DNA from: Patescibacteria group bacterium
GTDB lineage: Bacteria > Patescibacteriota > Patescibacteriia > JAXHNJ01
Length of the DNA: 64,000 nt
Direction: 5' to 3'
Assembly (NCBI GenBank): GCA_041649715.1
Contig: JBAZMP010000001.1
Location: 309,287-373,286 of the forward strand
Under the pieces are notes generated by a model. That model did no database searches. It saw only the letters and a list, made by a program, of their open reading frames with translations, and was not told the origin of the DNA. A program made the position numbers and the translations under genes. Below are positions 1 through 11,188 of the stretch, piece by piece. Numbering within the stretch: the stretch's first letter is position 1; every line of letters begins with the position of its first letter.

Positions 1-35
1 CAGAGTTAAGCCGAATGTCTCTTGGAAACGAGTGA

Positions 36-76
36 TTTTTTGGCTTGAATAAAAGCAGGAAAAATGCTAAGGTAGG
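36..76 (+). promoter_or_regulatory. Conserved ~40-bp upstream element, copy 1 (TTGAAT-17 bp-TAAGGT promoter-like) in front of dinD
   Basis: The sequence TTTTTTGGCTTGAATAAAAGCAGGAAAAATGCTAAGGTA is repeated almost identically at 1086..1126 in front of the next operon. It reads as a -35 TTGAAT, a 17-bp spacer, a TGn motif and a -10 TAAGGT. Confidence 0.45.
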
Positions 77-118
77 GGAGTAACATATACGAATTTCGGT
101 GGCTGGGAGAAAAAATAT

Positions 119-973
119 ATGGAAAAACAGATCATTGTCCGGCTGCATAAAAATTTCGAGGATTGCGCCCGCGAAAAAGACGGCGTGGAATTTTGGTATG
201 CCCGCGAATTGCAGGAATTGCTCAACTATGACAAGTGGGGCAATTTTGAGAATGTCATAAATAAGGCGAAAATAGCCTGCCGGAACGCGAAACAAGAGGT
301 CGCCGACCATTTTGCCGACGTCGGGAAAATGGTTGATTTGGGTTCCGGAAGCCAGCGTGAAGTGCCTGATATTATGCTGACGCGTTATGCCTGCTACCTG
401 ATCGCCCAGAATGGCGATCCGCGAAAAGACGAGATTGCTTTCGCTATGACCTATTTCGCGGTGCAGACGCACAAGCAGGAAATAGTCGAGCAGCGCCTGG
501 TCCAGTGGGAACGGGTGCGCGACCGGGGAAAGCTTTCTACTTCTGAAAAATCTCTTTCCGGCGTGCTTTTTGAGCGCGGAGTGGACAGCCAGGGGTTTGC
601 CCGGATCAGGAGCAAAGGTGATGCCGAGCTTTTTGGCGGATTAACAACTCAGGATATGAAGCAGAAATTAGGCGTGCCGAACAGCCGACCGCTGGCTGAT
701 TTTTTGCCCAGCGTAACCATTAAGGCCAAGGATTTGGCGAATGAAATAACTAGCCATAATATCCGGAAAGATACGGATTTGCGGGGGGAAGTTCCCATTA
801 CTTCAGAGCACGTGAAAAGCAACCGCAATATGCGCCAGATGCTCGGCAAGAGCGGCATTTACCCCGAAGACTTGCCGGCGGAGGAAGACGTGAAAAAGCT
901 TGAACGCAAGCTTAAGTCGGAAAATAAAAAATTGCCAAAGGCGGTTAAGAAGCTGAAAGATAGCAAAAAATAA
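119..973 (+). CDS. dinD: DNA-damage-inducible protein D (DinD)-like protein
   Basis: 284 aa. Strong collinear similarity to E. coli DinD as I recall it: ...GSGSQREVPDIMLTRYACYLIAQNGDPRKD... matches GSGAQRELEDVHLSRYACYLVVQNGDP. It also has FWYARELQELLNYDKWGNF and a basic C-terminus. Confidence 0.8.
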   Translation: MEKQIIVRLHKNFEDCAREKDGVEFWYARELQELLNYDKWGNFENVINKAKIACRNAKQEVADHFADVGKMVDLGSGSQREVPDIMLTRYACYLIAQNGDPRKDEIAFAMTYFAVQTHKQEIVEQRLVQWERVRDRGKLSTSEKSLSGVLFERGVDSQGFARIRSKGDAELFGGLTTQDMKQKLGVPNSRPLADFLPSVTIKAKDLANEITSHNIRKDTDLRGEVPITSEHVKSNRNMRQMLGKSGIYPEDLPAEEDVKKLERKLKSENKKLPKAVKKLKDSKK

Positions 974-1062
974 TCCCACGTTGAGACATTAGAAAAACAG
1001 CCCAAGCTCTAAAGTGCCGCTTAAAGATTGAATTTGTTAAATAGATAATAATAGGCTTTGTG

Positions 1063-1092
1063 GCGCCTCGCTGCGGCTCGGCGCCTTTTTTG
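1063..1092 (+). terminator. Intrinsic terminator after dinD
   Basis: GGCGCC-tcgctgcggctc-GGCGCC hairpin followed by TTTTTT. Confidence 0.5.
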
Positions 1093-1126
1093 GCTTGAAT
1101 AAAAGTAAGAAAAATGCTAAGGTAAA
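1086..1126 (+). promoter_or_regulatory. Conserved ~40-bp upstream element, copy 2 (TTGAAT-17 bp-TAAGGT) in front of the restriction-modification operon
   Basis: TTTTTTGGCTTGAATAAAAGTAAGAAAAATGCTAAGGTA matches copy 1 at 38 of 41 positions. Confidence 0.45.
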
Positions 1127-1213
1127 GGCATAAAATAACACAAATTTTGGTGGAAAATAGATTATAATACGGAGGTAAATTAAAAGAATTTTTGGGCAAT
1201 TAAATAAAAATAT

Positions 1214-3586
1214 ATGAATAGAAATGTAGTTGAAGAATATTTAAAAAAACAGAAAATAAAAGTCGTTGAGGAATTTGATTTTGAAAAAAAGAAAGTAAAA
1301 TATTCCGAAAAGATAAGAGGTTGGAAGATTGATAAATTTAGGGGCGATGAGGAAATCGTTAGAGCTTTTGTTCTTGCTAAACTTGTAAACGAATTGGGAT
1401 ATAAACCTGAGAATATTGAATTGGAAAAAGAATATGATATTGGTAGACCAAAGGTAAATAAACCCAGAATTGATATTATAGTTAAAGACGATAAAGACAA
1501 CGTTTTTTTGTATATTGAATTAAAAAGCCCCGCAGATTATGAAAAAGATAAGGATGAAGTAATTGAGAAACAACTTTTTAATCTTGCTTCACAAGAACAG
1601 GGCCAAGGTAAAAAAGTAAAATATCTCGTATTATATACAATTGAAATTGTTGAAACCCAGATAAAAGACAAATGTATTTTGATTGACTATGAAAAATTTA
1701 ATTCATTCAACACGTGGAAAGAAGTACGAAATTACGCAGATGAATTACCCGAAAGATATGAAAAAGCTCAAAAAGAACCATACGTAAAAGGTGGAAAAAA
1801 AGATTTAGAGACAAACTTTTCATATGAACAGCTTGATGGGCTGAGAAAAAATCTACATAATGTACTTTGGGGAGGTGGTGGAACAGATGACAACGATATT
1901 TTTTCGTCATTAGTAAATATTATTTTGGCAAAAATTCAAGATGAAAGCGAAAAAGAGGAAGGCGGAGAATATGACTTCCAAATTCGTTCATTTAAAGATG
2001 GCGAAAGTTTTGAAACCAACCAGCAACTTTTTATAAAAATAAATGATCTTTATATAAGAGCGTTAAAACAAAGATTAAATATTATTGACGAAAATGAGTT
2101 AAAAGAAAGCTTTGTAATTGATAAAAAGAAATTTTCTCTTGCAAAATTAAAATACACTATAATGCAAATCGAGAGATATTCATTTGTGGACGGGAAAAAC
2201 AGCTTTGACGGTAAAGATATTCTAGGAGACTTTTTCGAGGGTATTATTAGAGAAGGATTTAAACAAACAAAAGGTCAATTTTTTACGCATGTTAATATTG
2301 TAAGGTTTTTGCTTTGGGGGTTGCAACTTGATAAGCTAGCAATTGATAAAGTGAATAAAGATTTAGAAATTCCCTACCTAATAGATCCAAGCGCCGGTAG
2401 CGGCACTTTCCTGATTGAATATATGAAGTTTATTACCGAAAATCTCAAGAGAAGATTTAAAAGTAGACTAGCAAAAAAAAGAGACGTAGAGGACAAATTT
2501 AATCAATGGTTTATCCCTGACCACCGAGAAAATAAATGGGCACAACATTATATTTATGGCATAGAAACTAATTTTAATCTAGGTACTGCTACTAAAGTAA
2601 ATATGATTTTGCATGGGGATGGCTCAACTAATGTTTTTGTTAAAGACGGACTATTACCTTTTAATTATTACGACAAAGAAACCGCGCCGAACTATTTGAA
2701 GCAAAGCGAACAAGACAAAAACTACTTTAATAAAGAAGTAAATAAGCAATTTGACGTGATTATAACTAATCCTCCATTTAGTGTCACTTTGGATAATGAA
2801 ACAAAAGAGCATCTTACTAAAGAGTTTATTTTTGGAAGCACAAAAAACTCGGAAAATTTGTTTGTAGAAAGATGGTATCAATTATTAAAACCTAACGGAA
2901 GATTTGGGGTAGTTTTGCCAGAAAGTGTTTTTGATACAACAGAAAATAAATACATTCGTCTATTTATTTACAAATATTTTAAAATTAAAGCAGTAGTTTC
3001 TTTACCACAACTTACTTTTCAGCCGTTTACAAGTACTAAGACTAGTCTTTTATTCGCTCAAAAGAAAACTGATAAGGAAATTGAAGAATGGAATAAACTT
3101 TGGAGTAAATATAGTAGTGAATGGAGTGCTCTAAAAAATAAGTGTAAAAATTTATTATTGGTCTATTTAGAAAACAAAGACAAAAAGAAATTATCTTCAA
3201 TCAAAGATTTGTTAGAATCGGAGAAAAAAGAGATATTATTAAGAATGCTTAAAGATAATATTGAAGAAGATGATAAAAAATTATTAGCAAAAGAGCTGAT
3301 ATATAAATACAAAAGTGAATTAGTTGAACTTTGTGAATATGATAACGATACTAAAGATGTTTTTGGTTTTGTCAATACCTGGTGGGTTTTTAGTGAGGTA
3401 GCAAAAATACTCAATTACAAAATTTTTATGGCAGAAGTAGAAAATATTGGATATAAAAGGACTAAAAGAGCTGAAAAACCTATGCCAAACGAACTTTATC
3501 GCGTAAATGATAAAGGAGAAGTTTTAGTTGATGATGGCAGGATAGAAACTGCTTTAGATTATTTAAGAAAAGTGATATGGGATTAA
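1214..3586 (+). CDS. Restriction-modification bifunctional subunit: N-terminal HSDR_N-type PD-(D/E)xK nuclease domain fused to a gamma-class N6-adenine DNA methyltransferase (BcgI-A-like Type IIB, or a Type I M-like subunit)
   Basis: 790 aa. The N-terminal region has PRIDIIVKDDKDNVFLYIELKSP, a D..ExK nuclease motif. Methyltransferase motif I is LIDPSAGSGTFLIEY and motif IV is ITNPPFSV. The gene overlaps the downstream S gene by 10 nt and is extremely AT-rich. Confidence 0.75.
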   Translation: MNRNVVEEYLKKQKIKVVEEFDFEKKKVKYSEKIRGWKIDKFRGDEEIVRAFVLAKLVNELGYKPENIELEKEYDIGRPKVNKPRIDIIVKDDKDNVFLYIELKSPADYEKDKDEVIEKQLFNLASQEQGQGKKVKYLVLYTIEIVETQIKDKCILIDYEKFNSFNTWKEVRNYADELPERYEKAQKEPYVKGGKKDLETNFSYEQLDGLRKNLHNVLWGGGGTDDNDIFSSLVNIILAKIQDESEKEEGGEYDFQIRSFKDGESFETNQQLFIKINDLYIRALKQRLNIIDENELKESFVIDKKKFSLAKLKYTIMQIERYSFVDGKNSFDGKDILGDFFEGIIREGFKQTKGQFFTHVNIVRFLLWGLQLDKLAIDKVNKDLEIPYLIDPSAGSGTFLIEYMKFITENLKRRFKSRLAKKRDVEDKFNQWFIPDHRENKWAQHYIYGIETNFNLGTATKVNMILHGDGSTNVFVKDGLLPFNYYDKETAPNYLKQSEQDKNYFNKEVNKQFDVIITNPPFSVTLDNETKEHLTKEFIFGSTKNSENLFVERWYQLLKPNGRFGVVLPESVFDTTENKYIRLFIYKYFKIKAVVSLPQLTFQPFTSTKTSLLFAQKKTDKEIEEWNKLWSKYSSEWSALKNKCKNLLLVYLENKDKKKLSSIKDLLESEKKEILLRMLKDNIEEDDKKLLAKELIYKYKSELVELCEYDNDTKDVFGFVNTWWVFSEVAKILNYKIFMAEVENIGYKRTKRAEKPMPNELYRVNDKGEVLVDDGRIETALDYLRKVIWD

Positions 3587-4989
3587 ATAAATTTACAGTT
3601 GATTTTCAAAATATTGGTGAACAACAATTTTTAAGACCCAATTTTGGTTACAGGTATTTTTTTGATATTCAGAATGCGGAAATTTATCCTACAAAAGATA
3701 GTATTAAATTAAAATATGTCTTGAATGAGATGCCGATGAAGAAAGTAAGCAAGGGTGAATTAGAAGAGTCAGAAATTCTGATTGATATAGGAAATATTGA
3801 AAGAAGATTTAATAATTTAATAAATTTAGTAGAAGTAGATAGAATAGGTTCTGATAAAAATATAATGCAATATGGAGACATCATTATACCTAAATTGCAA
3901 CCACAAATGGGGAATATTTTTTTAAATTCTGGTCATAAAAGATTTATAGGATCTACCGAATTGCTTGAATATAAAATTAATGAAAATTATAATCCCATAT
4001 TCATTTATTACTTAATTACTTCTAATAAATTTCTTTTTGATCTAGCAAAATTGGAAAGTGGAAAAGCGCATAGAAGGGTAAATTCAGTAGATCTGTTAAA
4101 AATTAGAATTCCCTTAATATCTAAAGAATCGCAAGATTTAATTGTTGCTCAAATATGGCCGATTGAAAAGAAAATTAATGAACTAAAAAAACAAATTGAA
4201 CAACCTCAAAATGTTATTAATAAAGTTTTTGCAAGAGAATTTGGTTTTGATTTAGAAAAATATGAAAAGTTAAAGAAAGATAAGTTTTCCGAAGTAGATT
4301 TAAAAGATATTTTGAGACATAATTTTGTTAGAATAAGTTTTCATTTTCATCATAAAACTCTTATTGCCATTGAAAATAAATTAAAAAATAAGAATTATTG
4401 GGCGCCGGTTAATTCATTATTTAGTTTATTCGGTGGAAAAAGAATACCAAAGGGTAAGAGTTTTTCGAATATCGAAACGGACTATTATTATTTAAGACCT
4501 ACGGAAGTAAGTATTTGGGGTATTGATAAGATTAACGTTCCATTTATCCCTGTATCAATTTATGATCAGTTAAAGAGATATAAAATAGTAACGGATGAAT
4601 TTTGTATTTCAATTGTCGGTACTTTAGGGAAAACCGCGTTAATTAACACAGATATTTTAGATATAGGAAAAGATAATTTAATATTAAGTGAAAACTTTAT
4701 TAAACTAAAACCTAAAAAACATATAAATAGTTTATTTTATATTTACTTTTTTTATAGTTTTATTTTTGAAGCGCAAATTAATAGAGAATATACCATAACA
4801 TCAATAAAAAAATTAGGTATTGATAAATGGAATAATATAAAAATTCCATGTATTTCTATTATAAAACAGCAAAAAATTGTTGATGAAATCAAGGGTGAAT
4901 TAGACAAACAAGAAAAATTTTATAAGAAAATTGAAATGGAAAGAGATAAAATTGATGAGATTATTGAAAAAGTGATTATTCGTGAATAG
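3577..4989 (+). CDS. hsdS: Restriction-modification specificity subunit (HsdS / BcgI-B-like, two target-recognition domains)
   Basis: 470 aa. Two variable domains are separated by the conserved central coiled-coil spacer (LISKESQDLIVAQIWPIEKKINELKKQIEQ). The C-terminus has a matching repeat (IKQQKIVDEIKGELDKQEKFYKKIE). It is translationally coupled to the methyltransferase gene. Confidence 0.8.
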   Translation: MGLNKFTVDFQNIGEQQFLRPNFGYRYFFDIQNAEIYPTKDSIKLKYVLNEMPMKKVSKGELEESEILIDIGNIERRFNNLINLVEVDRIGSDKNIMQYGDIIIPKLQPQMGNIFLNSGHKRFIGSTELLEYKINENYNPIFIYYLITSNKFLFDLAKLESGKAHRRVNSVDLLKIRIPLISKESQDLIVAQIWPIEKKINELKKQIEQPQNVINKVFAREFGFDLEKYEKLKKDKFSEVDLKDILRHNFVRISFHFHHKTLIAIENKLKNKNYWAPVNSLFSLFGGKRIPKGKSFSNIETDYYYLRPTEVSIWGIDKINVPFIPVSIYDQLKRYKIVTDEFCISIVGTLGKTALINTDILDIGKDNLILSENFIKLKPKKHINSLFYIYFFYSFIFEAQINREYTITSIKKLGIDKWNNIKIPCISIIKQQKIVDEIKGELDKQEKFYKKIEMERDKIDEIIEKVIIRE

Positions 4990-5064
4990 ACTCATATTTA
5001 AGTCATTTTTACAATATCCATTGACCTAATTTATTTCAATTAATAATTATTAATTAAGAATATT

Positions 5065-5985
5065 ATGGCAAATCTCTATTGGAAAAAGAATAAAAAAATA
5101 TTAGCCGCTACCGAGACACCATTTAAAACAGAAGATGAACTTGAACGTTATCTATTAGATACCCGGGGGATTTTAAGCGAAATCAATATAATAAATAGGC
5201 AAATTAGGTCCAAAACGGTTTCAGGAATAGAAATTCCAGATATGATCGGAGTTGATAGCGAGGGTTCCATTGTTATTATTGAAAATAAAAATGTTCCGGT
5301 TGATGAAAGGATTATTTCTCAGGTACTTAATTATGCTCTTTGGGCAGAATCTAATCCAGATTCAATAAAGAATTTATGGCTTCAAGCTGATCAAGAAGGC
5401 GTGGAACCAGAATGGGACAATTTACAAATTCGCATAATGATAGTTGCCCCAGAAATAAAACCACATTTAGCAAAATTCATTTCAAAAATTGGATACCCAA
5501 TTGATTTATTAGAGATAAAAAAATTTAATATTAGTAAAGATGAATTTATTGTGTTAAATAAAATAGAACCAAATATAATTGATACAAAACCAGTACATGC
5601 AAAAAGAAATTATGATTATTCATATTATTCAACCAATCATAATAAGGAAAGTGTAAAAAAACTTGAAAAAGCTGTAAATAGCGTTGAAAATTATGTTAAT
5701 AAAAACAAATGGAAATTAGAAAAAAAATTTAACCAAGGTTATGTGGGCTTTAAATATGGTTTTCCCTTAGTTTTTGGCATACAGTGGTTAGGAACCAGAT
5801 CCTTCGGGTTTTTTTTCAAAATGCCTAAAGCAAAAATGAAAAAAATTATTGTTCCGGGCCTTGAATTTAAGGGTTATAATGATCGGTGGGATCAAGTAGA
5901 ATATAAAATTATTTCACCTACTTTTGACGTTAAAAAATTAAAACCAGTGTTTCTAGCTTCATACAATTATGTCAAAGGAGAATAA
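5065..5985 (+). CDS. PD-(D/E)xK nuclease-like protein of unknown function (restriction-endonuclease-like fold, possible NucS/DUF91-like core)
   Basis: 306 aa. IPDMIGVDSEGSIVIIENKN followed by QVLNYALWAE reads as D...ExK plus a QxxxY motif. The gene is AT-rich and sits inside the defense island. Confidence 0.45.
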   Translation: MANLYWKKNKKILAATETPFKTEDELERYLLDTRGILSEINIINRQIRSKTVSGIEIPDMIGVDSEGSIVIIENKNVPVDERIISQVLNYALWAESNPDSIKNLWLQADQEGVEPEWDNLQIRIMIVAPEIKPHLAKFISKIGYPIDLLEIKKFNISKDEFIVLNKIEPNIIDTKPVHAKRNYDYSYYSTNHNKESVKKLEKAVNSVENYVNKNKWKLEKKFNQGYVGFKYGFPLVFGIQWLGTRSFGFFFKMPKAKMKKIIVPGLEFKGYNDRWDQVEYKIISPTFDVKKLKPVFLASYNYVKGE

Positions 5986-6031
5986 CATTTTTTCTTTAAA
6001 AGTTGCGCTATAATATAATAAGATATGCAGC

Positions 6032-6598
6032 ATGAGTAATCTTGAAACATTTTTCGAACAATTCGAAGAATGGGTGCTAAAAGATATTAAAATAGTACTA
6101 GAATTAGTAAATAAAGAAGGTAATTCATTAGCCCCTGATAGAAGAGTGGTGGTTTGGCGGCGCCCGCTTGTCGCCGGAGTTATATTAATATGTTGCGCTA
6201 TCGATACATTAGCCGCATTTCGTTATGGCCGAACTAATAATAATGTGGGAACATATTTTATGCGCTTTGTTAGAGATTATTTTGCGCAAAGCCGTGACAC
6301 TAGATATAATGATGAGCAAATCTATAAGGGGTTACGTAATGCATTATTACACGGCTATTCTCTTGGATCAGATTTAGCATTAAGTCATACTAGCGCTTCA
6401 CGGCATTTGACGAAAGAAGCAAACAAAATAGTTATAGATGTATTTTCACTGCAGCAAGATTTAGAAAAAGTATATTCTATCTATAAAAGTGAATTGAAAA
6501 ATGGACAACATATTCCAGAATTTAATGATAGATGGAATTACGCACCTCTTATTCAATATTTTCCTGATATAGATTTAAAACTTAATAGCAGAAATTAA
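6032..6598 (+). CDS. Hypothetical protein (defense-island associated)
   Basis: 188-aa ORF with no recognisable motif. It follows the nuclease-like gene 46 nt downstream and is followed by a strong terminator. Confidence 0.5.
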   Translation: MSNLETFFEQFEEWVLKDIKIVLELVNKEGNSLAPDRRVVVWRRPLVAGVILICCAIDTLAAFRYGRTNNNVGTYFMRFVRDYFAQSRDTRYNDEQIYKGLRNALLHGYSLGSDLALSHTSASRHLTKEANKIVIDVFSLQQDLEKVYSIYKSELKNGQHIPEFNDRWNYAPLIQYFPDIDLKLNSRN

Positions 6599-6652
6599 AG
6601 TAATTCAAACATAAGCTCATTTTTCCCTCCCCACTGGCGGTTTTTGCCTAAC

Positions 6653-6687
6653 AAAAAAATCCTCAAAAAAGCTGACGAGGATTTTTG
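6653..6687 (+). terminator. Intrinsic terminator
   Basis: AAAAAATCCTC-aaaaaagctgac-GAGGATTTTTG hairpin. Confidence 0.6.
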
Positions 6688-6691
6688 ACTA

Positions 6692-6871
6692 TTAAATAGT
6701 CAAATCGTGAATAGGTACACTAGCTGCCCAACGTTTTATCCATTGAACAGAATCTATAGCATTTTGTTTTGAGGAATAACCCTCACTCCAAGCAACGAAT
6801 TCGTTGTTTGCAGCAACAAGACGCCATCGGTACTCATTTGCGTTATCACGATAGATTTCGAATCTAATCAT
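6692..6871 (-). CDS. YegP/UPF0339 (DUF1508) family small protein, absent from the ORF track because it is under 60 aa
   Basis: Reverse-strand translation gives MIRFEIYRDNANEYRWRLVAANNEFVAWSEGYSSKQNAIDSVQWIKRWAASVPIHDLTI (59 aa), the classic DUF1508 pattern FEIYkDkageyRfRLkA.NGEiia.SegY.sk. Confidence 0.7.
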   Translation of the reverse strand: MIRFEIYRDNANEYRWRLVAANNEFVAWSEGYSSKQNAIDSVQWIKRWAASVPIHDLTI

Positions 6872-7293
6872 GATTTTTTTCCTTTGTTAGACTATACTTA
6901 GGAGTCGACCTTTAATTTACTCCCAGGACAAAAACCAAATAATTTAGTTCCTATCAGGGGAGAATTAAAAGCGACTTAATCTAGATATAGAATAAGCGCC
7001 GGATTTTACCTCGCCAGCTTTTTCAAAGAGTTTTTAACAGCTACATACTAACGAATAATAATGTCTCTGTCAAGTAGGTTTATTATTTTAGCTAAAAAGC
7101 TTATAATAAATCCATGTCCAAATACTACAACTCTAAGCGCACCAAACATCTTTTTGACCCTACCTTTTTTAACGCTATTTGTTATAAGCACTAAATCCGA
7201 AATACGAAACTCTAAACAAATTCTAATTTCTCAAATCCGAAATTCGAAACTGAGGGTTTTAAAAGCCAAAGACGATAACGAAAAACAAGCGGT

Positions 7294-7405
7294 AGAGGGG
7301 GTCCGGGGGAAAAACTGAAAGCCAAACGGCCATACGGAACAACCTTACCCACCTCTCGCGGTTTTTTTCCCCCGGAACTTTTGCTACTTTTAGTTATAAA
7401 AGTAG
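7294..7405. repeat. Structured repeat family A, copy 1 (GGGGTCCGGGGG ... CCCCCGGAAC long hairpin plus a small 3' hairpin)
   Basis: GGGGGTCCGGGGGAAAAACTG...CGGTTTTTTTCCCCCGGAAC, then CTACTTTTAGTTATAAAAGTAG. Related copies lie at 10409..10530, 12596..12755 and 12866..12955. Confidence 0.7.
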
Positions 7406-7409
7406 AAAT

Positions 7410-7525
7410 ATATCAGTACAGACAAAAAAGTAAGTAGGGGATAATCAAAAAAGACTGTCTACCCTTCGAGGCTCAAGCCTGTCCTGAGTGGCATCGAAGG
7501 ACACCTCAGAGTGACAGTTTTATTT
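7410..7525. repeat. Structured repeat family B, copy 1 (AGTAGGGGATAA..CTGTCTACCCTTCGAGGCT-[variable]-CACCTCAGAGTGACAGTTTTA)
   Basis: The conserved 5' and 3' arms can pair (CTGTCTACCC with GGGTGACAG) around a variable core. Copies lie at 10141..10215, 10560..10640, 10700..10795 and 12757..12790. Confidence 0.65.
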
Positions 7526-7695
7526 TGATTCTTTTTCACCAAAAAAACAAACAATCAACCAAGACATTTTTTATCCGCCCGCTAGCCTTAGCGTGTTTTT
7601 TGTATGAAGAAGTTTATCCACCTTGACTTAGAAAGGTATATATATTAGTGTTAAGTTAGTACTAATTCAGTAAATTAGCACAATCTACTAATTTT

Positions 7696-8283
7696 ATGAA
7701 ATGGCTAGATTTTGAGCGAAAAATTAAGAGTAAAAATATTAAGCTGTTCACGCCGCTTGATGTGCAGAGATTTTTAGGCCGGTCTAAAATAGCCGCCCGT
7801 TTTTTGATCCATCGCCTGAAAAAAAATGGCTATATTGTGAGCCTCAAACGCGGTTTGTATAAGCTGTCCGATGAACAAATTCCGGATCTGTATCTGGCCA
7901 ATAATATTTACGCCCCCTCGTATGTTTCCCTGGAATTCGCCCTTTCGTACCACGGAGTCATTCCCGAAACTGTCTATGAGATAACTTCGGTTACCACCAA
8001 GGCCACCCGCCGGTTTGAGGCGCTGGGAAAAGTTTTTTCTTACCACAAAATAAAAAAACCGGCTTTTACCGGCTATGTCATCCAAAAACAGGGCGGGTTG
8101 GGTTTTCACGTCGCCGAACCAGAAAAGGCTTTCGTGGATGCGAATTATTTTCGGCTCTTGGACGGCCGAAAACCGCTGTCCCGCTTCAACAAGGATAAAA
8201 TTGATTTAAAAAAGGCCTTGTTTTATGCCGCTCTTTTCGGCAATCAGAAACTTAACAATATAATTAAAACAACGCTTCAATGA
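7696..8283 (+). CDS. abiEi: Type IV toxin-antitoxin system antitoxin AbiEi (winged-HTH transcriptional regulator)
   Basis: 195 aa. The N-terminus MKWLDFERKIKSK...FTPLDVQRFLGRSKIAARFLIHRLKKNGYIVSLKRGLYKL is typical of AbiEi. The gene overlaps the downstream gene by 4 nt (ATGA). Confidence 0.75.
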   Translation: MKWLDFERKIKSKNIKLFTPLDVQRFLGRSKIAARFLIHRLKKNGYIVSLKRGLYKLSDEQIPDLYLANNIYAPSYVSLEFALSYHGVIPETVYEITSVTTKATRRFEALGKVFSYHKIKKPAFTGYVIQKQGGLGFHVAEPEKAFVDANYFRLLDGRKPLSRFNKDKIDLKKALFYAALFGNQKLNNIIKTTLQ

Positions 8284-9023
8284 TTTCCCAGGAATTAATA
8301 AAAAAAATAGCCAGTCAGAATAAAACAGCGGATTTTCCCAATATTGTCCGCGAGTATTTTCAGCACCTTTTTTTATCCGAGCTCTATAGATTATCCGGCG
8401 CCGAGAATTTGCTTTTTAAGGGCGGGACCGCTTTGCGCATTATCTACGGCAGTCCGCGCTTTTCCGAGGATTTGGATTTTACCCTGATCGGCGTTGAAGG
8501 TTACCGGAAAAAGGAATTCGCGGAAAGCCTGTTTCTCAGCGTTTTGACCGAGATTGAAAAAATCGGCATTAAGGTGGAGATAAACCGGAAGTCGGATGAG
8601 ACCCGCGAGGGTTATTTTGGCGATGCGAACTATCAGGTTTATGATTATCCCGAAACGTCCGTGAGTATAAATATATCCTCAAGAGAGGGAAAAGATATTA
8701 AGGGCGAGATTGATTCCATCGCCAATGATTTCATACCGACTTATAATATTCTGCATCTGTCAAAAAATGTGTTGGTGGAAGAAAAAATAACGGCCGCGAT
8801 CACTCGGGCGAAACCCAGAGATTTTTACGATGTCTATTTTATCCTTAGAAAAAATTTGCTGGCGACAGAAAATAAAAAAATACTCCCTGACATCCTTGAT
8901 AAATTGAATAACACTGATATTAATTTTACCCAGGAATTAGGCATTTTCTTGCCGAAGGATCAGCAGCAAATAGTGAAAGATTTCAAGAATATTTTAACTT
9001 CTGAAATAAAGCGTTATATTTAG
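8280..9023 (+). CDS. abiEii: Type IV toxin-antitoxin system toxin AbiEii (DUF1814 nucleotidyltransferase)
   Basis: 247 aa. It has the nucleotidyltransferase motif LFKGGTALRIIYGSPRFSEDLDFTL (GS...DxD), and its size and operon partner are typical. Confidence 0.75.
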   Translation: MISQELIKKIASQNKTADFPNIVREYFQHLFLSELYRLSGAENLLFKGGTALRIIYGSPRFSEDLDFTLIGVEGYRKKEFAESLFLSVLTEIEKIGIKVEINRKSDETREGYFGDANYQVYDYPETSVSINISSREGKDIKGEIDSIANDFIPTYNILHLSKNVLVEEKITAAITRAKPRDFYDVYFILRKNLLATENKKILPDILDKLNNTDINFTQELGIFLPKDQQQIVKDFKNILTSEIKRYI

Positions 9024-9036
9024 CCTTAACATATTT

Positions 9037-10059
9037 ATGGAAACCAAAAATCCAATGAAAACCAAAAAGTGGCTCTGGTACGCCGCAGCGGCTCTTTTAT
9101 GTTTTATCGCCATCGCCGCTTTTGCCTGGAGCGCGGCCAATAAGAGCAAGAATACGAACGCGGTGGCCGTGGCCAATAAAAACGTAAATTCGGCTGCTAA
9201 TTCCAACGCCGCAGCTGGTCAGAACGCCAATAGCAGTCTGGCCAATACCAATACGAACACCAATAATAATACTAATGCCAGCGCCAATACCAACGCTAGC
9301 CAGATCGTGACCGCGGCCAAGACCATTGATGAAACAGCCATTACGCTGGTGCAAAAAAGTACCGGCCACTGCGAAGCCTTGGCTCCTTTGGACTGGTCTT
9401 TTGTCACCAATGCCGAAGGGAGCGGCGCGGATCTTTATTCCGCCGATAAATCCTTGAAAGCCGCCATGCACGCCGGCTGGGGGATCTCGGCCGTCTATAC
9501 CTACATGTATCCGACCGTGGATTCTTTTCTTTCCGCCTGGCTCGGTTATGCTTATACCGGTTCATTTACCAACGGAGGCATTACCTTGGCCGCCGCCCAG
9601 GATGTTTATGAAGGTTTTATCCAGCGGGAATTTACCACCTCAAACGGCCGCAAAGGGGTGGCGATATACAAGACCTACAATTTCGGCGACCCGACCATGT
9701 ACGTGGTTTCCGTTTATATCGCCGATACGGCCAGCGACAAGTGGGAGACCAGCGGCGCTCAGCCATTTTACGTCGCCCTGACCATCCGCTGCGTCACCCA
9801 GCTCCGGCCGGTAACTTCCAGCGTTGATCCTTACACTTCTGATCCGGGCAGTTCTTCTGACAATCCCGAAGTGGGCCTGTCTGACAAATGGACCGAAGCC
9901 ATTATGGGTTATGAAAATGTCTATTCCCCGACCACGGGGGAGCATTACGAAGCGCCCCTTACTTCCGAGTGGCAGGGCGGTCCGCAAGGAACCGGTTATT
10001 ACCGCAGCCTTCCCAATGGCGGTTATGAAAAACTTGAACCGGGGTTTGGAGAGTACTAG
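9037..10059 (+). CDS. Membrane-anchored extracytoplasmic protein of unknown function with an Asn-rich linker
   Basis: 340 aa. A basic N-terminus and one TM helix (WLWYAAAALLCFIAIAAFAW) are followed by an NTN/NAN low-complexity linker and a globular domain. GC content is markedly higher than in the neighbouring genes. Confidence 0.6.
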   Translation: METKNPMKTKKWLWYAAAALLCFIAIAAFAWSAANKSKNTNAVAVANKNVNSAANSNAAAGQNANSSLANTNTNTNNNTNASANTNASQIVTAAKTIDETAITLVQKSTGHCEALAPLDWSFVTNAEGSGADLYSADKSLKAAMHAGWGISAVYTYMYPTVDSFLSAWLGYAYTGSFTNGGITLAAAQDVYEGFIQREFTTSNGRKGVAIYKTYNFGDPTMYVVSVYIADTASDKWETSGAQPFYVALTIRCVTQLRPVTSSVDPYTSDPGSSSDNPEVGLSDKWTEAIMGYENVYSPTTGEHYEAPLTSEWQGGPQGTGYYRSLPNGGYEKLEPGFGEY

Positions 10060-10830
10060 GCAGATAATATTATTGTCATACTGAGGAGCCATGAGATCCT
10101 GAGTCGCATCGAAGGACGAATGGCGTCTCGAAGTATGACCGTTTAGACACATAAAAGCCTGTCTATCCTTCGAGGCTCGCATTGCTCGCACCTCAGGGTG
10201 ACAGTTTTAGTTTTATTTGAAATTCGGTGCATCGGATTTAATCGTCAGGCGGCGAAGCGTTGACGAGCCGCCACTAAGAAAAAGTTAGCAGTAATTTAAG
10301 CTTTCAGCAGGCTGGGGTCTCTGCCTACGGCAGACAGGTGGGGGCTTCATCGCCTTAAATATTTTACAGCGTTTTTTGCTATTAAAAATAACGAAAATTT
10401 AATGGGCGAGGGGGTCCGGGGGAAAAACTGAAAGCGAATGGGCTACGCGGTAAAACCAACCCCCTGTGCTCGCGGTTTTTTTCCCCCGGGGCTTTTGGTT
10501 CTTTTGGCCTCAAAAGAACAAGACAATCAGCCTTGCCCCCTAAAATAAAAATTTTCTAAAGGTAAAAACTCACCCTTCGAGGCTCCCATTCGACGCGGCT
10601 CATGCTCGCACCTCAGGGTGACAGTTTTATTATTTTGGTTTTTGGAGTCTGCCCTGAGTGGCAACGAAGGGGTTACAAAAGTTGAAATACTTCGGCACAG
10701 ACTAAAGATTGAGTAAGGGATAAACAGAAGAAACCGTCTACCCTTCGAGGCTTAGGCGTTGCCTTCGCACCTCAGGGTGACAATTTTAGTTTGCATTTAT
10801 CAACTTTATAAGATTAAAATAAAAGACCCT
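10060..10830. repeat. Non-coding island densely packed with structured repeat modules (families A and B, a TTAGCAG..GCTTTCAGCA module and an AGCCTTGCCCCC..AAAATAAAA module)
   Basis: Family A copy at 10409..10530. Family B arms at 10158..10215, 10571..10640 and 10735..10795. A CTGCCCTGAGTGGCAACGAAGGGGTTACAAAAGTTGAAA module at 10644..10690. No credible ORF. Confidence 0.7.
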
Positions 10831-10879
10831 TTTGTTCAAGCAGTGGGTCTTTAGGCATCTGCTAGCTTGCGGATGGGCG

Positions 10880-11188
10880 CTACGAGAGGAACTGGATCCA
10901 GCCATGGCGGGTGCGAAAATCGAATTTGATGAGATGATCGTGCGGTCCCTCCCGGTCAACCGAGTAGGCCTTTATTATCCAGCGTTCGCCGGAGACGTCT
11001 GCCCGCTCCATCCCTCGGATAGCGGCGTTAACGGCGGTTTGAGGCGCCATGGGCGGCATACCTCGTTTCCACGGCTTCGGCGTGATCTTGAATTCTACCC
11101 ATTTCTGTTCGTGATTCTGGCCCACGAACAGAGCGATGAGGGCGTCGAACTTCGACGGCCCGTCGAGGATCTCAATACGCTGTGCCAT
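10880..11188 (-). CDS. Hypothetical protein (GC-rich)
   Basis: 102-aa ORF with an excellent Shine-Dalgarno sequence AGGAGGT 6 nt upstream of the ATG on the minus strand. The overlapping plus-strand 178-aa ORF is Arg/Pro-rich junk. Confidence 0.5.
   Translation of the reverse strand: MAQRIEILDGPSKFDALIALFVGQNHEQKWVEFKITPKPWKRGMPPMAPQTAVNAAIRGMERADVSGERWIIKAYSVDREGPHDHLIKFDFRTRHGWIQFLS

Follow-up and report, generated by a model that had tools for sequence, protein, structure and literature searches.

A PDC-S18 family nuclease and a probable HEPN-type RNase as likely separate cargo of a restriction-modification cassette in a Patescibacteria group bacterium

Two adjacent genes, here called gene A and gene B, lie in the 3' tail of a restriction-modification (R-M) cassette of a Patescibacteria group bacterium, in a 64-kb stretch of contig JBAZMP010000001.1 which is referred to below as the window. 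RNases of the HEPN type, with which gene B was compared, carry the signature Rx4-6H, usually with a polar residue after the arginine. A survey of that superfamily places the motif where helix 3 ends, and a conserved acidic residue in helix 2, with inserts between helices 2 and 3 being frequent (PMC3710099). PrrC, RloC and other R-M-linked HEPN proteins have been proposed to be fail-safe RNases, and the R-M guard model, of which PrrC is the example, has been suggested for 16 or more HEPN clades (Anantharaman et al. 2013, PMC3710099). The closest described systems for gene A are the phage defence candidates (PDC), which were found by 'guilt-by-embedding' in type I R-M, BREX or DISARM operons; 145 PDC systems were entered into PADLOC so that they could be tested later (Payne et al., bioRxiv 10.1101/2024.01.29.577857). 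In HEC-08, an embedded single HEPN gene protects and needs the histidine of its motif (bioRxiv 10.1101/2024.01.29.577857).

The reading we favour, and which we hold to be reasonably probable, is that the 3' tail of an acquired R-M cassette carries genes A and B as two single-gene cargo genes independent of each other, one for a PDC-S18 nuclease and the other for a probable HEPN RNase. A preliminary description had presented them as one novel two-gene module. A scan of one genome per species gave 173 confirmed gene A loci, of which the best 80 were analysed, up to 10 kb on each side where the contig allowed. Using both tblastn and hidden Markov models (HMMs), gene B relatives were found in 0 of these 80 loci and gene A relatives in 0 of the approximately 12 non-redundant gene B loci. 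The two do not form a conserved two-gene unit, and the proposal of a novel two-gene system is wrong as stated: their homologues did not co-occur in any of these loci, an outcome which the preliminary description had itself named as refuting it. With 18 gene B family proteins as tblastn queries, the 80 gene A loci gave one marginal match (L035, E 1e-3 over 60 aa, 4.4 kb from gene A). It was set aside, since the HMM found no gene B-like open reading frame (ORF) in that or in any other gene A locus; the best value with the gene B superfamily HMM among the 8,218 ORFs of these loci was E 0.45. A weak match (E 0.32) in the protein upstream of gene A in L034 was rejected, because that protein is a type I HsdR and the match falls in its helical T1R_D3/T1RH region. 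In the other direction, 76 gene A family proteins found nothing by tblastn in 19 gene B loci (best E 0.046). The closest relative of gene A, in L010, keeps the order methyltransferase (M), specificity subunit (S), gene A without a gene B. In L005 a PDC-S02 nuclease (E 5.9e-49) is two genes away from a homologue of gene B, in an order and at a spacing unlike those of the window; it was considered as a NucS-type nuclease specifically linked to gene B and set aside, as what it has in common with gene A is the generic core alone (25% over 57 aa). An ORF in L099, considered as a gene A-like nuclease near gene B, is not gene A-like. What the two genes do have in common is that, independently of each other, they tend to be placed directly 3' of R-M operons.

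The positions of the two ORFs (Table 1), their common strand and the gap of 46 nt between them were as previously given, and exact-sequence matches carry the locus tags WC528_01600 and WC528_01605 in a Patescibacteria-group metagenome-assembled genome. Both genes are AT-rich, as had also been said: their GC contents are 0.300 (A) and 0.337 (B) against 0.439 for the window, and their GC at third codon positions (GC3) is 0.215 and 0.222. A GC3 of 0.17-0.23 is common to the upstream methyltransferase, the S subunit, gene A and gene B, whereas AbiEi, AbiEii and an aminoacyl-tRNA-synthetase-like housekeeping gene have values around 0.5. The block from 1000 to 7000 has a GC content of 0.294 and is the sole part of the window below 0.36. 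This common low GC and GC3, compared with the surroundings, suggests that the R-M genes and genes A and B were acquired horizontally as one AT-rich block. The flanks that had been named for the pair, a restriction system and AbiE, are correct, but AbiE is not directly adjacent; a DUF1508 gene on the opposite strand and a repeat-bearing spacer of about 800 nt lie between it and gene B.

Gene A is a plain member of a catalogued candidate family and not a new kind of thing, so that the label 'uncharacterised' did not hold for it as far as catalogues go. The PADLOC model PDLC04944 (PDC-S18) aligned with residues 1-306 over profile positions 1-307 of 307 (E 1.9e-100, 334 bits), and the length of about 306 aa is uniform over 75 homologues. 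A Pfam search of gene A gave no match. Nothing sets it apart from its family: the match is full-length, it is a single gene without a conserved partner, and it recurs at or inside R-M operons. No paper on PDC-S18 by name was found, nor any experimental account of anti-phage activity, and the 11 supplementary files of the PDC paper do not mention it (bioRxiv 10.1101/2024.01.29.577857). The structure model (pLDDT 86) has two domains. The nuclease-like core in the first of them, which had been noticed earlier, proved to be real: E23, E27, D59, E73, K75, N76, Q86 and Y90 are invariant in a 34-member alignment, and the core spacing is D-x13-E-x-K plus QxxxY. A profile search of the PDB with the gene A family found NucS (2vld, E 2.7e-6), and D59, E73, K75, Q86 and Y90, counted along the printed alignment, fall in the NucS columns D160, E174, K176, Q187 and Y191, the first three of which we take to be the catalytic residues of NucS. 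Since the conserved residues occupy NucS catalytic columns, the catalytic domain of gene A is, by this alignment, homologous to that of NucS, and gene A is a predicted nuclease; on this point the preliminary description passes its own test. It is not a NucS orthologue. The NCBIfam NucS model scored 19.1 bits against a cutoff of 216 and covered aa 23-132 only, and although NucS/EndoMS (PDB 2vld, 5gke) has the same PD-(D/E)xK domain with D, E-x-K and QxxxY, its nuclease is C-terminal, behind an N-terminal DNA-binding domain, whereas in gene A the nuclease occupies the N-terminus and an unrelated alpha/beta domain comes after it. Judged from its fold, this second domain most likely binds nucleic acid. 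PDC-S18, so far a database name, gains from this a domain anatomy and candidate catalytic residues to mutate.

The best 80 gene A loci come from Patescibacteria, Omnitrophota, Chloroflexota, Verrucomicrobiota, Planctomycetota, Acidobacteriota, Nitrospirota and methanogenic archaea, at an identity of roughly 40%, ie the distribution is patchy and transfer-like. Gene A relatives were found neither in the phage collection nor in plasmids. There is no conserved neighbour, in that no ORF cluster occurs within 6 kb in more than 6 of 81 loci. At a distance of up to 6 kb from gene A, R-M genes are present in 15 or more of the 80 loci, a lower bound due to the limited seed set; 14 of the 15 are co-directional and 7 of the 15 directly adjacent. 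This is well above the approximately 1% expected, a figure that is our own rough estimate. The R-M types concerned are I, III, IIG, ISP-like and M plus S, and in seven loci gene A follows the R-M genes by 20-80 nt. It stands behind a type I HsdR in two loci (at 69 and 32 nt), behind type III Mod and Res in four, behind a type IIG enzyme in one, behind an ISP-like enzyme in one (22 nt), and behind M and S in L010 (24 nt) and in the window (75 nt). More often, the family has no R-M gene nearby, and the pooled immediate neighbours also include PDC-S09, PDC-S15 and housekeeping genes. The habit of PDC-S18 can thus be given as a measured one, at the 3' end of several R-M operon types in many phyla. 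L010 belongs to Candidatus Giovannonibacteria (MFIU01000004.1, 81% identity); the order at 5635..10918 is M (664 aa), a 323-aa unknown, S (454 aa) and the gene A homologue, with M and S homologous to those of the window and unrelated small genes 3' of gene A. Pfam gives no match for the 323-aa gene, which is possibly a further cargo gene embedded there.

Gene B had been described as a partner devoid of recognisable motifs, which was not borne out. Its close family (18 members, 50-60% identity) is invariant in R102-N-A-L-L-H107-G-Y109, the Rx4H motif and predicted active site, as well as in CCAID (54-58), H119, H125 and D136. An exhaustive profile search enlarged the family to 364 cluster representatives, mostly of 160-200 aa, and in a 62-member superfamily alignment, with identities as low as about 20%, invariance is confined to the columns F79, R102 and H107, with C55, D58, Y92, H125 and D143 conserved in at least 90%. 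The motif starts with RN in the close clade and with RC, RN or RS in the wider family. Searches of Pfam, PADLOC, NCBIfam, PHROGs and PDB sequences gave no match for gene B or for the 62 diverse relatives, and the sequence family is not covered by the first four of these libraries (Pfam in its 2025 copy). A faint precomputed tag on three homologues, Rv1289 (PF27329), was not used; no functional literature on it was found.

In the AlphaFold2 model of gene B (pLDDT 79.6, pTM 0.80) the Rx4H motif closes helix 94-107 at its C-terminus, as has been described for HEPN, D58 is in helix 44-65, and there is an extra helix at 72-84. Motif, acidic residue and insert between helices 2 and 3 thereby match the HEPN layout, in a predicted model and not a solved structure. 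On motif and model together, gene B is most likely a small, metal-independent RNase of the HEPN type with an R102/H107 dyad, and it probably works as a dimer. Two comparisons call for caution over this assignment. A Foldseek search of the model against the PDB gave no significant match (best E 0.68), and hhalign of the gene B superfamily with a DUF86 HEPN toxin from L054 aligned the motif alone (E 0.21), a test of low power because that toxin itself matches no PDB sequence; a control comparison with the gene A profile was likewise null. Some weight, enough for an unlikely but serious alternative, has to be given to gene B being another four-helix bundle, eg a DinB-like metal-dependent enzyme using C55, D58, H107, H125 and D143, or else a non-enzymatic regulator.

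Compared with described HEPN systems, gene B fits the known kind of an R-M-linked HEPN RNase, and its sequence family is new to the libraries searched. AbiV, a 201-aa stand-alone HEPN RNase of Lactococcus (PDB 9bj5; bioRxiv 10.1101/2024.05.05.592566), does not match it in sequence and has a spacer of 5 residues (RNHKSKH) where gene B has 4. AbiV is restrained by an RNA antitoxin, whereas at gene B neither a repeat nor a conserved non-coding element turned up. With no tandem repeats and no conserved upstream DNA to be found, the idea of a type III-style RNA antitoxin or of a conserved leader was discarded, and the related loci did not reveal a protein antitoxin. The HEPN-MNT toxins (DUF86; PDB 5yep, 7ae2, 8xdj) differ in having an MNT partner, since neither gene B nor any of 12 relatives has a gene for an MNT or another nucleotidyltransferase beside it. 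Gene B also exceeds these toxins in length by about 50 aa and has an additional N-terminal helix as well as a beta-hairpin, and the profile comparison was not significant. PrrC and RloC resemble it as HEPN-type genes riding with R-M operons, but in them the HEPN domain carries an N-terminal ABC-type ATPase, which gene B, with its single domain of 188 aa, lacks. HEC-08 has zinc-finger domains, which gene B lacks. If gene B is a true RNase toxin, it adds one more R-M-linked HEPN lineage, apparently without a known control partner; in any case it marks a family of about 364 sequence clusters with a strict Rx4H dyad and an R-M-linked close clade.

The R-M linkage of gene B is limited to that close clade. 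Homologues lie 5 nt behind a 945-aa type IIG enzyme (L007-9) and 39 nt behind a 1193-aa Eco57I/MmeI-type enzyme which is itself preceded by an SNF2 helicase (L095/96); the enzymes of L007 and L095 are homologues of the M protein of the window. Other homologues are near an NmeDI-like endonuclease (L001-4) or, in L005, inside a type I island that also holds PDC-S02. The only recurrent neighbour in 12 non-redundant loci is the methyltransferase/IIG family which includes the 790-aa enzyme of the window. No R-M gene stands beside the homologue in L097 and in two short contigs, ie in 3 of 8 close-clade loci, and the two contigs (1.5-4.4 kb) are weak evidence of absence. Distant relatives are found next to IS21, near AbiGi or among housekeeping genes. 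The phage collection held no relative of gene B, and plasmids only a distant one.

This plasmid relative (L106, Arcobacter plasmid CP134847.1, 81211..95549) has 32% identity over 110 aa and is annotated as hypothetical. The stretch around it is flanked by integrase/recombinase genes, contains HEPN/Toprim-associated, SMEK, DUF2971 and DUF2326 genes, and looks like a conflict-system island. L005 (positions 1..10558 of a Logan SRR6489369 contig) is a type I R-M island with several inserted genes: DUF4238, a 320-aa unknown, an ExoVII-large-subunit-like gene, the gene B homologue, two small unknowns and the 389-aa PDC-S02/NucS_C protein. Here, for a second time, one R-M tail holds a gene B relative together with a candidate nuclease of the NucS type. 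In L100 (2656..3767) and L001 (4418..5584) the gene B-family gene is preceded by a 160-aa ORF, which in L100 overlaps it by 4 nt, has a weak BRCT match and is adjacent to IS21. The two 160-aa ORFs were not clustered by BLAST, and their equal length is probably a coincidence.

These neighbourhoods bear on a further reading, also unlikely, in which one or both genes are accessories of the upstream R-M system within a four-gene operon M-S-A-B, gene A as an extra nuclease subunit and gene B as a PrrC-like guard which the R-M complex keeps inactive. The composition shared by all four genes would agree with it, as would the M-(x)-S-A order conserved in L010, the short distances at which gene A follows R-M genes in seven loci, the 5 nt and 39 nt which separate gene B homologues from IIG-type homologues of the M protein, and the breadth of the guard model (PMC3710099). 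However, gene A is found behind four mechanistically different R-M types and usually behind none, which argues against a specific subunit role, and the M protein of the window has an HSDR_N_2 nuclease domain of its own. Gene B has no PrrC ATPase sensor domain, and the three close-clade loci without an R-M gene, weak as two of them are, count on the same side.

If the two genes are independent cargo, as we favour, gene A would be a stand-alone DNA endonuclease which cuts foreign DNA by itself. It is probably independent of the neighbouring methyltransferase, because it occurs beside four R-M types and, more often, beside none. Through its C-terminal domain it would more likely recognise a feature other than the neighbour's methylation, either a modified base, following a type IV-like logic, or a DNA structure; this recognition is the weakest step of the proposed mechanism. 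Gene B would be an abortive-infection-like fail-safe RNase, latent in healthy cells and released on infection, possibly, by analogy with PrrC, when the adjacent R-M enzyme is disabled. The R-M protein would then mask the RNase until restriction is neutralised, a model suggested because the position of gene B directly behind IIG-type enzymes fits it. For each gene a defence-type role is plausible from its context, and to that extent the anti-phage function put forward in the preliminary description stands, but not for a paired system. Such cargo matters in Patescibacteria, which have small genomes and few defences.

A more ambitious version, which we regard as rather doubtful, joins the two genes. 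Gene B would found a minimal HEPN RNase family with no ATPase, MNT partner or recognisable antitoxin, acting as a fail-safe on Type IIG/IIB-like enzymes: silenced by the R-M protein that it follows, it would be unleashed when a phage disables restriction, and it would cooperate locally with the PDC-S18 DNase. If true, this would be a layered DNA-then-RNA defence in a tiny genome of the candidate phyla radiation.

It is improbable that neither gene is defensive, with gene A a NucS-like repair or mobile-element nuclease and gene B a housekeeping protein. NucS/EndoMS is indeed a repair enzyme, and many neighbours of gene A and some of distant gene B relatives are housekeeping genes, but gene A has a different architecture without the N-terminal DNA-binding domain of NucS, its family is patchy over many phyla, including archaea, at about 40% identity, the R-M adjacency is well above our rough estimate of 1%, and both genes are in a compositionally foreign block between defence genes. 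Least probable is one two-component defence system, eg a DNase sensor/effector with an RNase partner: the genes are adjacent, co-directional, 46 nt apart and alike in GC3, they share a single downstream hairpin, combinations of a REase-fold DNase with HEPN are a known theme (PMC3710099) and L005 has a different NucS-type candidate two genes from a gene B homologue, but set against this are the absence of co-occurrence in 80 and about 12 loci, the lack of any conserved neighbour of gene A, whose family PADLOC lists as a single-gene candidate, the M-S-A order kept without gene B in L010, and the merely generic core, other order and other spacing of the L005 nuclease. A false lead is thereby pruned.

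Table 1. Features of the window discussed in the text (positions in nt; position 1 is the first letter of the window; TRD, target recognition domain)
Feature	Position	Strand	Basis or remark
DinD-like Bro-N protein	119..973	+	NCBIfam DinD equivalog, 347 bits vs cutoff 242
R-M cassette: M/R fusion and S subunit	1214..4989	+	Pfam, PADLOC; genes A and B in its 3' tail
HSDR_N_2 nuclease + N6-adenine methyltransferase (N6_Mtase) fusion, 790 aa	1214..3586	+	Pfam, PADLOC
Two-TRD S subunit, 470 aa	3577..4989	+	Pfam, PADLOC; 10-nt overlap with the gene at 1214..3586
Gene A, PDC-S18 family stand-alone nuclease (predicted), 306 aa	5065..5985	+	PADLOC PDLC04944
Gene A N-terminal domain, ~aa 1-168, NucS-type PD-(D/E)xK nuclease (predicted)	5065..5568	+	
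Gene A catalytic-type residues D59, E73, K75, Q86, Y90	5239..5334	+	
Gene A C-terminal domain, ~aa 183-306, alpha/beta sandwich of YdhG/YjbR/MotA-CTD type	5611..5982	+	
Gene B, probable HEPN-type RNase, uncatalogued family, 188 aa	6032..6598	+	
Gene B motif R102-N-A-L-L-H107-G-Y109 (Rx4H, predicted active site)	6335..6358	+	
Terminator-like hairpin, modest, bidirectional	6655..6686	.	Folding; between gene B and the convergent DUF1508 gene
DUF1508 / HVO_2922-family gene, 59 aa	6692..6871	-	Convergent with gene B
AbiEi/AbiEii	7696..9023		Pfam, PADLOC

The hairpin 3' of gene B had been called a strong terminator, which overstated it. It is AU-rich, with a 10-bp stem and a 12-nt loop, starts 57 nt past the stop codon of gene B and is common to that gene and the convergent DUF1508 gene. 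Folding gave a free energy (dG) of -11 kcal/mol (z -2.4) on the + strand and of -13.4 kcal/mol (z -3.3) on the - strand. A scan for consensus terminators after gene B found none and missed this hairpin, and no Rfam family was found in 4800..7800. The DUF1508 gene also matches phage protein families of unknown function (phrog_1422, E 2e-10).

At the left side of the block, the DinD-like gene is a full-length match to the PADLOC candidate PDC-S13 (E 3e-114), which makes it a second untested single-gene candidate in the island besides gene A; its GC content is 0.50, unlike that of the adjoining AT-rich block. No tRNA was found at the island edge. A 52-nt direct repeat (87% identical) occurs at 36..87 and 1086..1137, ie 5' of the DinD-like gene and 5' of the R-M methyltransferase gene, with the second copy coinciding exactly with the left border of the AT-rich block. 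A shared promoter or a cassette boundary would be possible explanations.

Directly 3' of AbiEii, at 9037..10059 on the + strand, is a gene for a 340-aa protein with an N-terminal hydrophobic segment and a long low-complexity stretch rich in Asn, Ala and Thr; it has no family match, and its GC content of 0.53 is the maximum of the region. This gene and those of AbiEi and AbiEii form a block flanked by a repeated intergenic sequence of several hundred nt, at 7275..7527 and 10090..10793. Pieces of the repeat are 72-94% identical and include a GC-rich, hairpin-like GGGGGTCCGGGGG...CCCCCGG, which suggests a repeated structured element or cassette borders.

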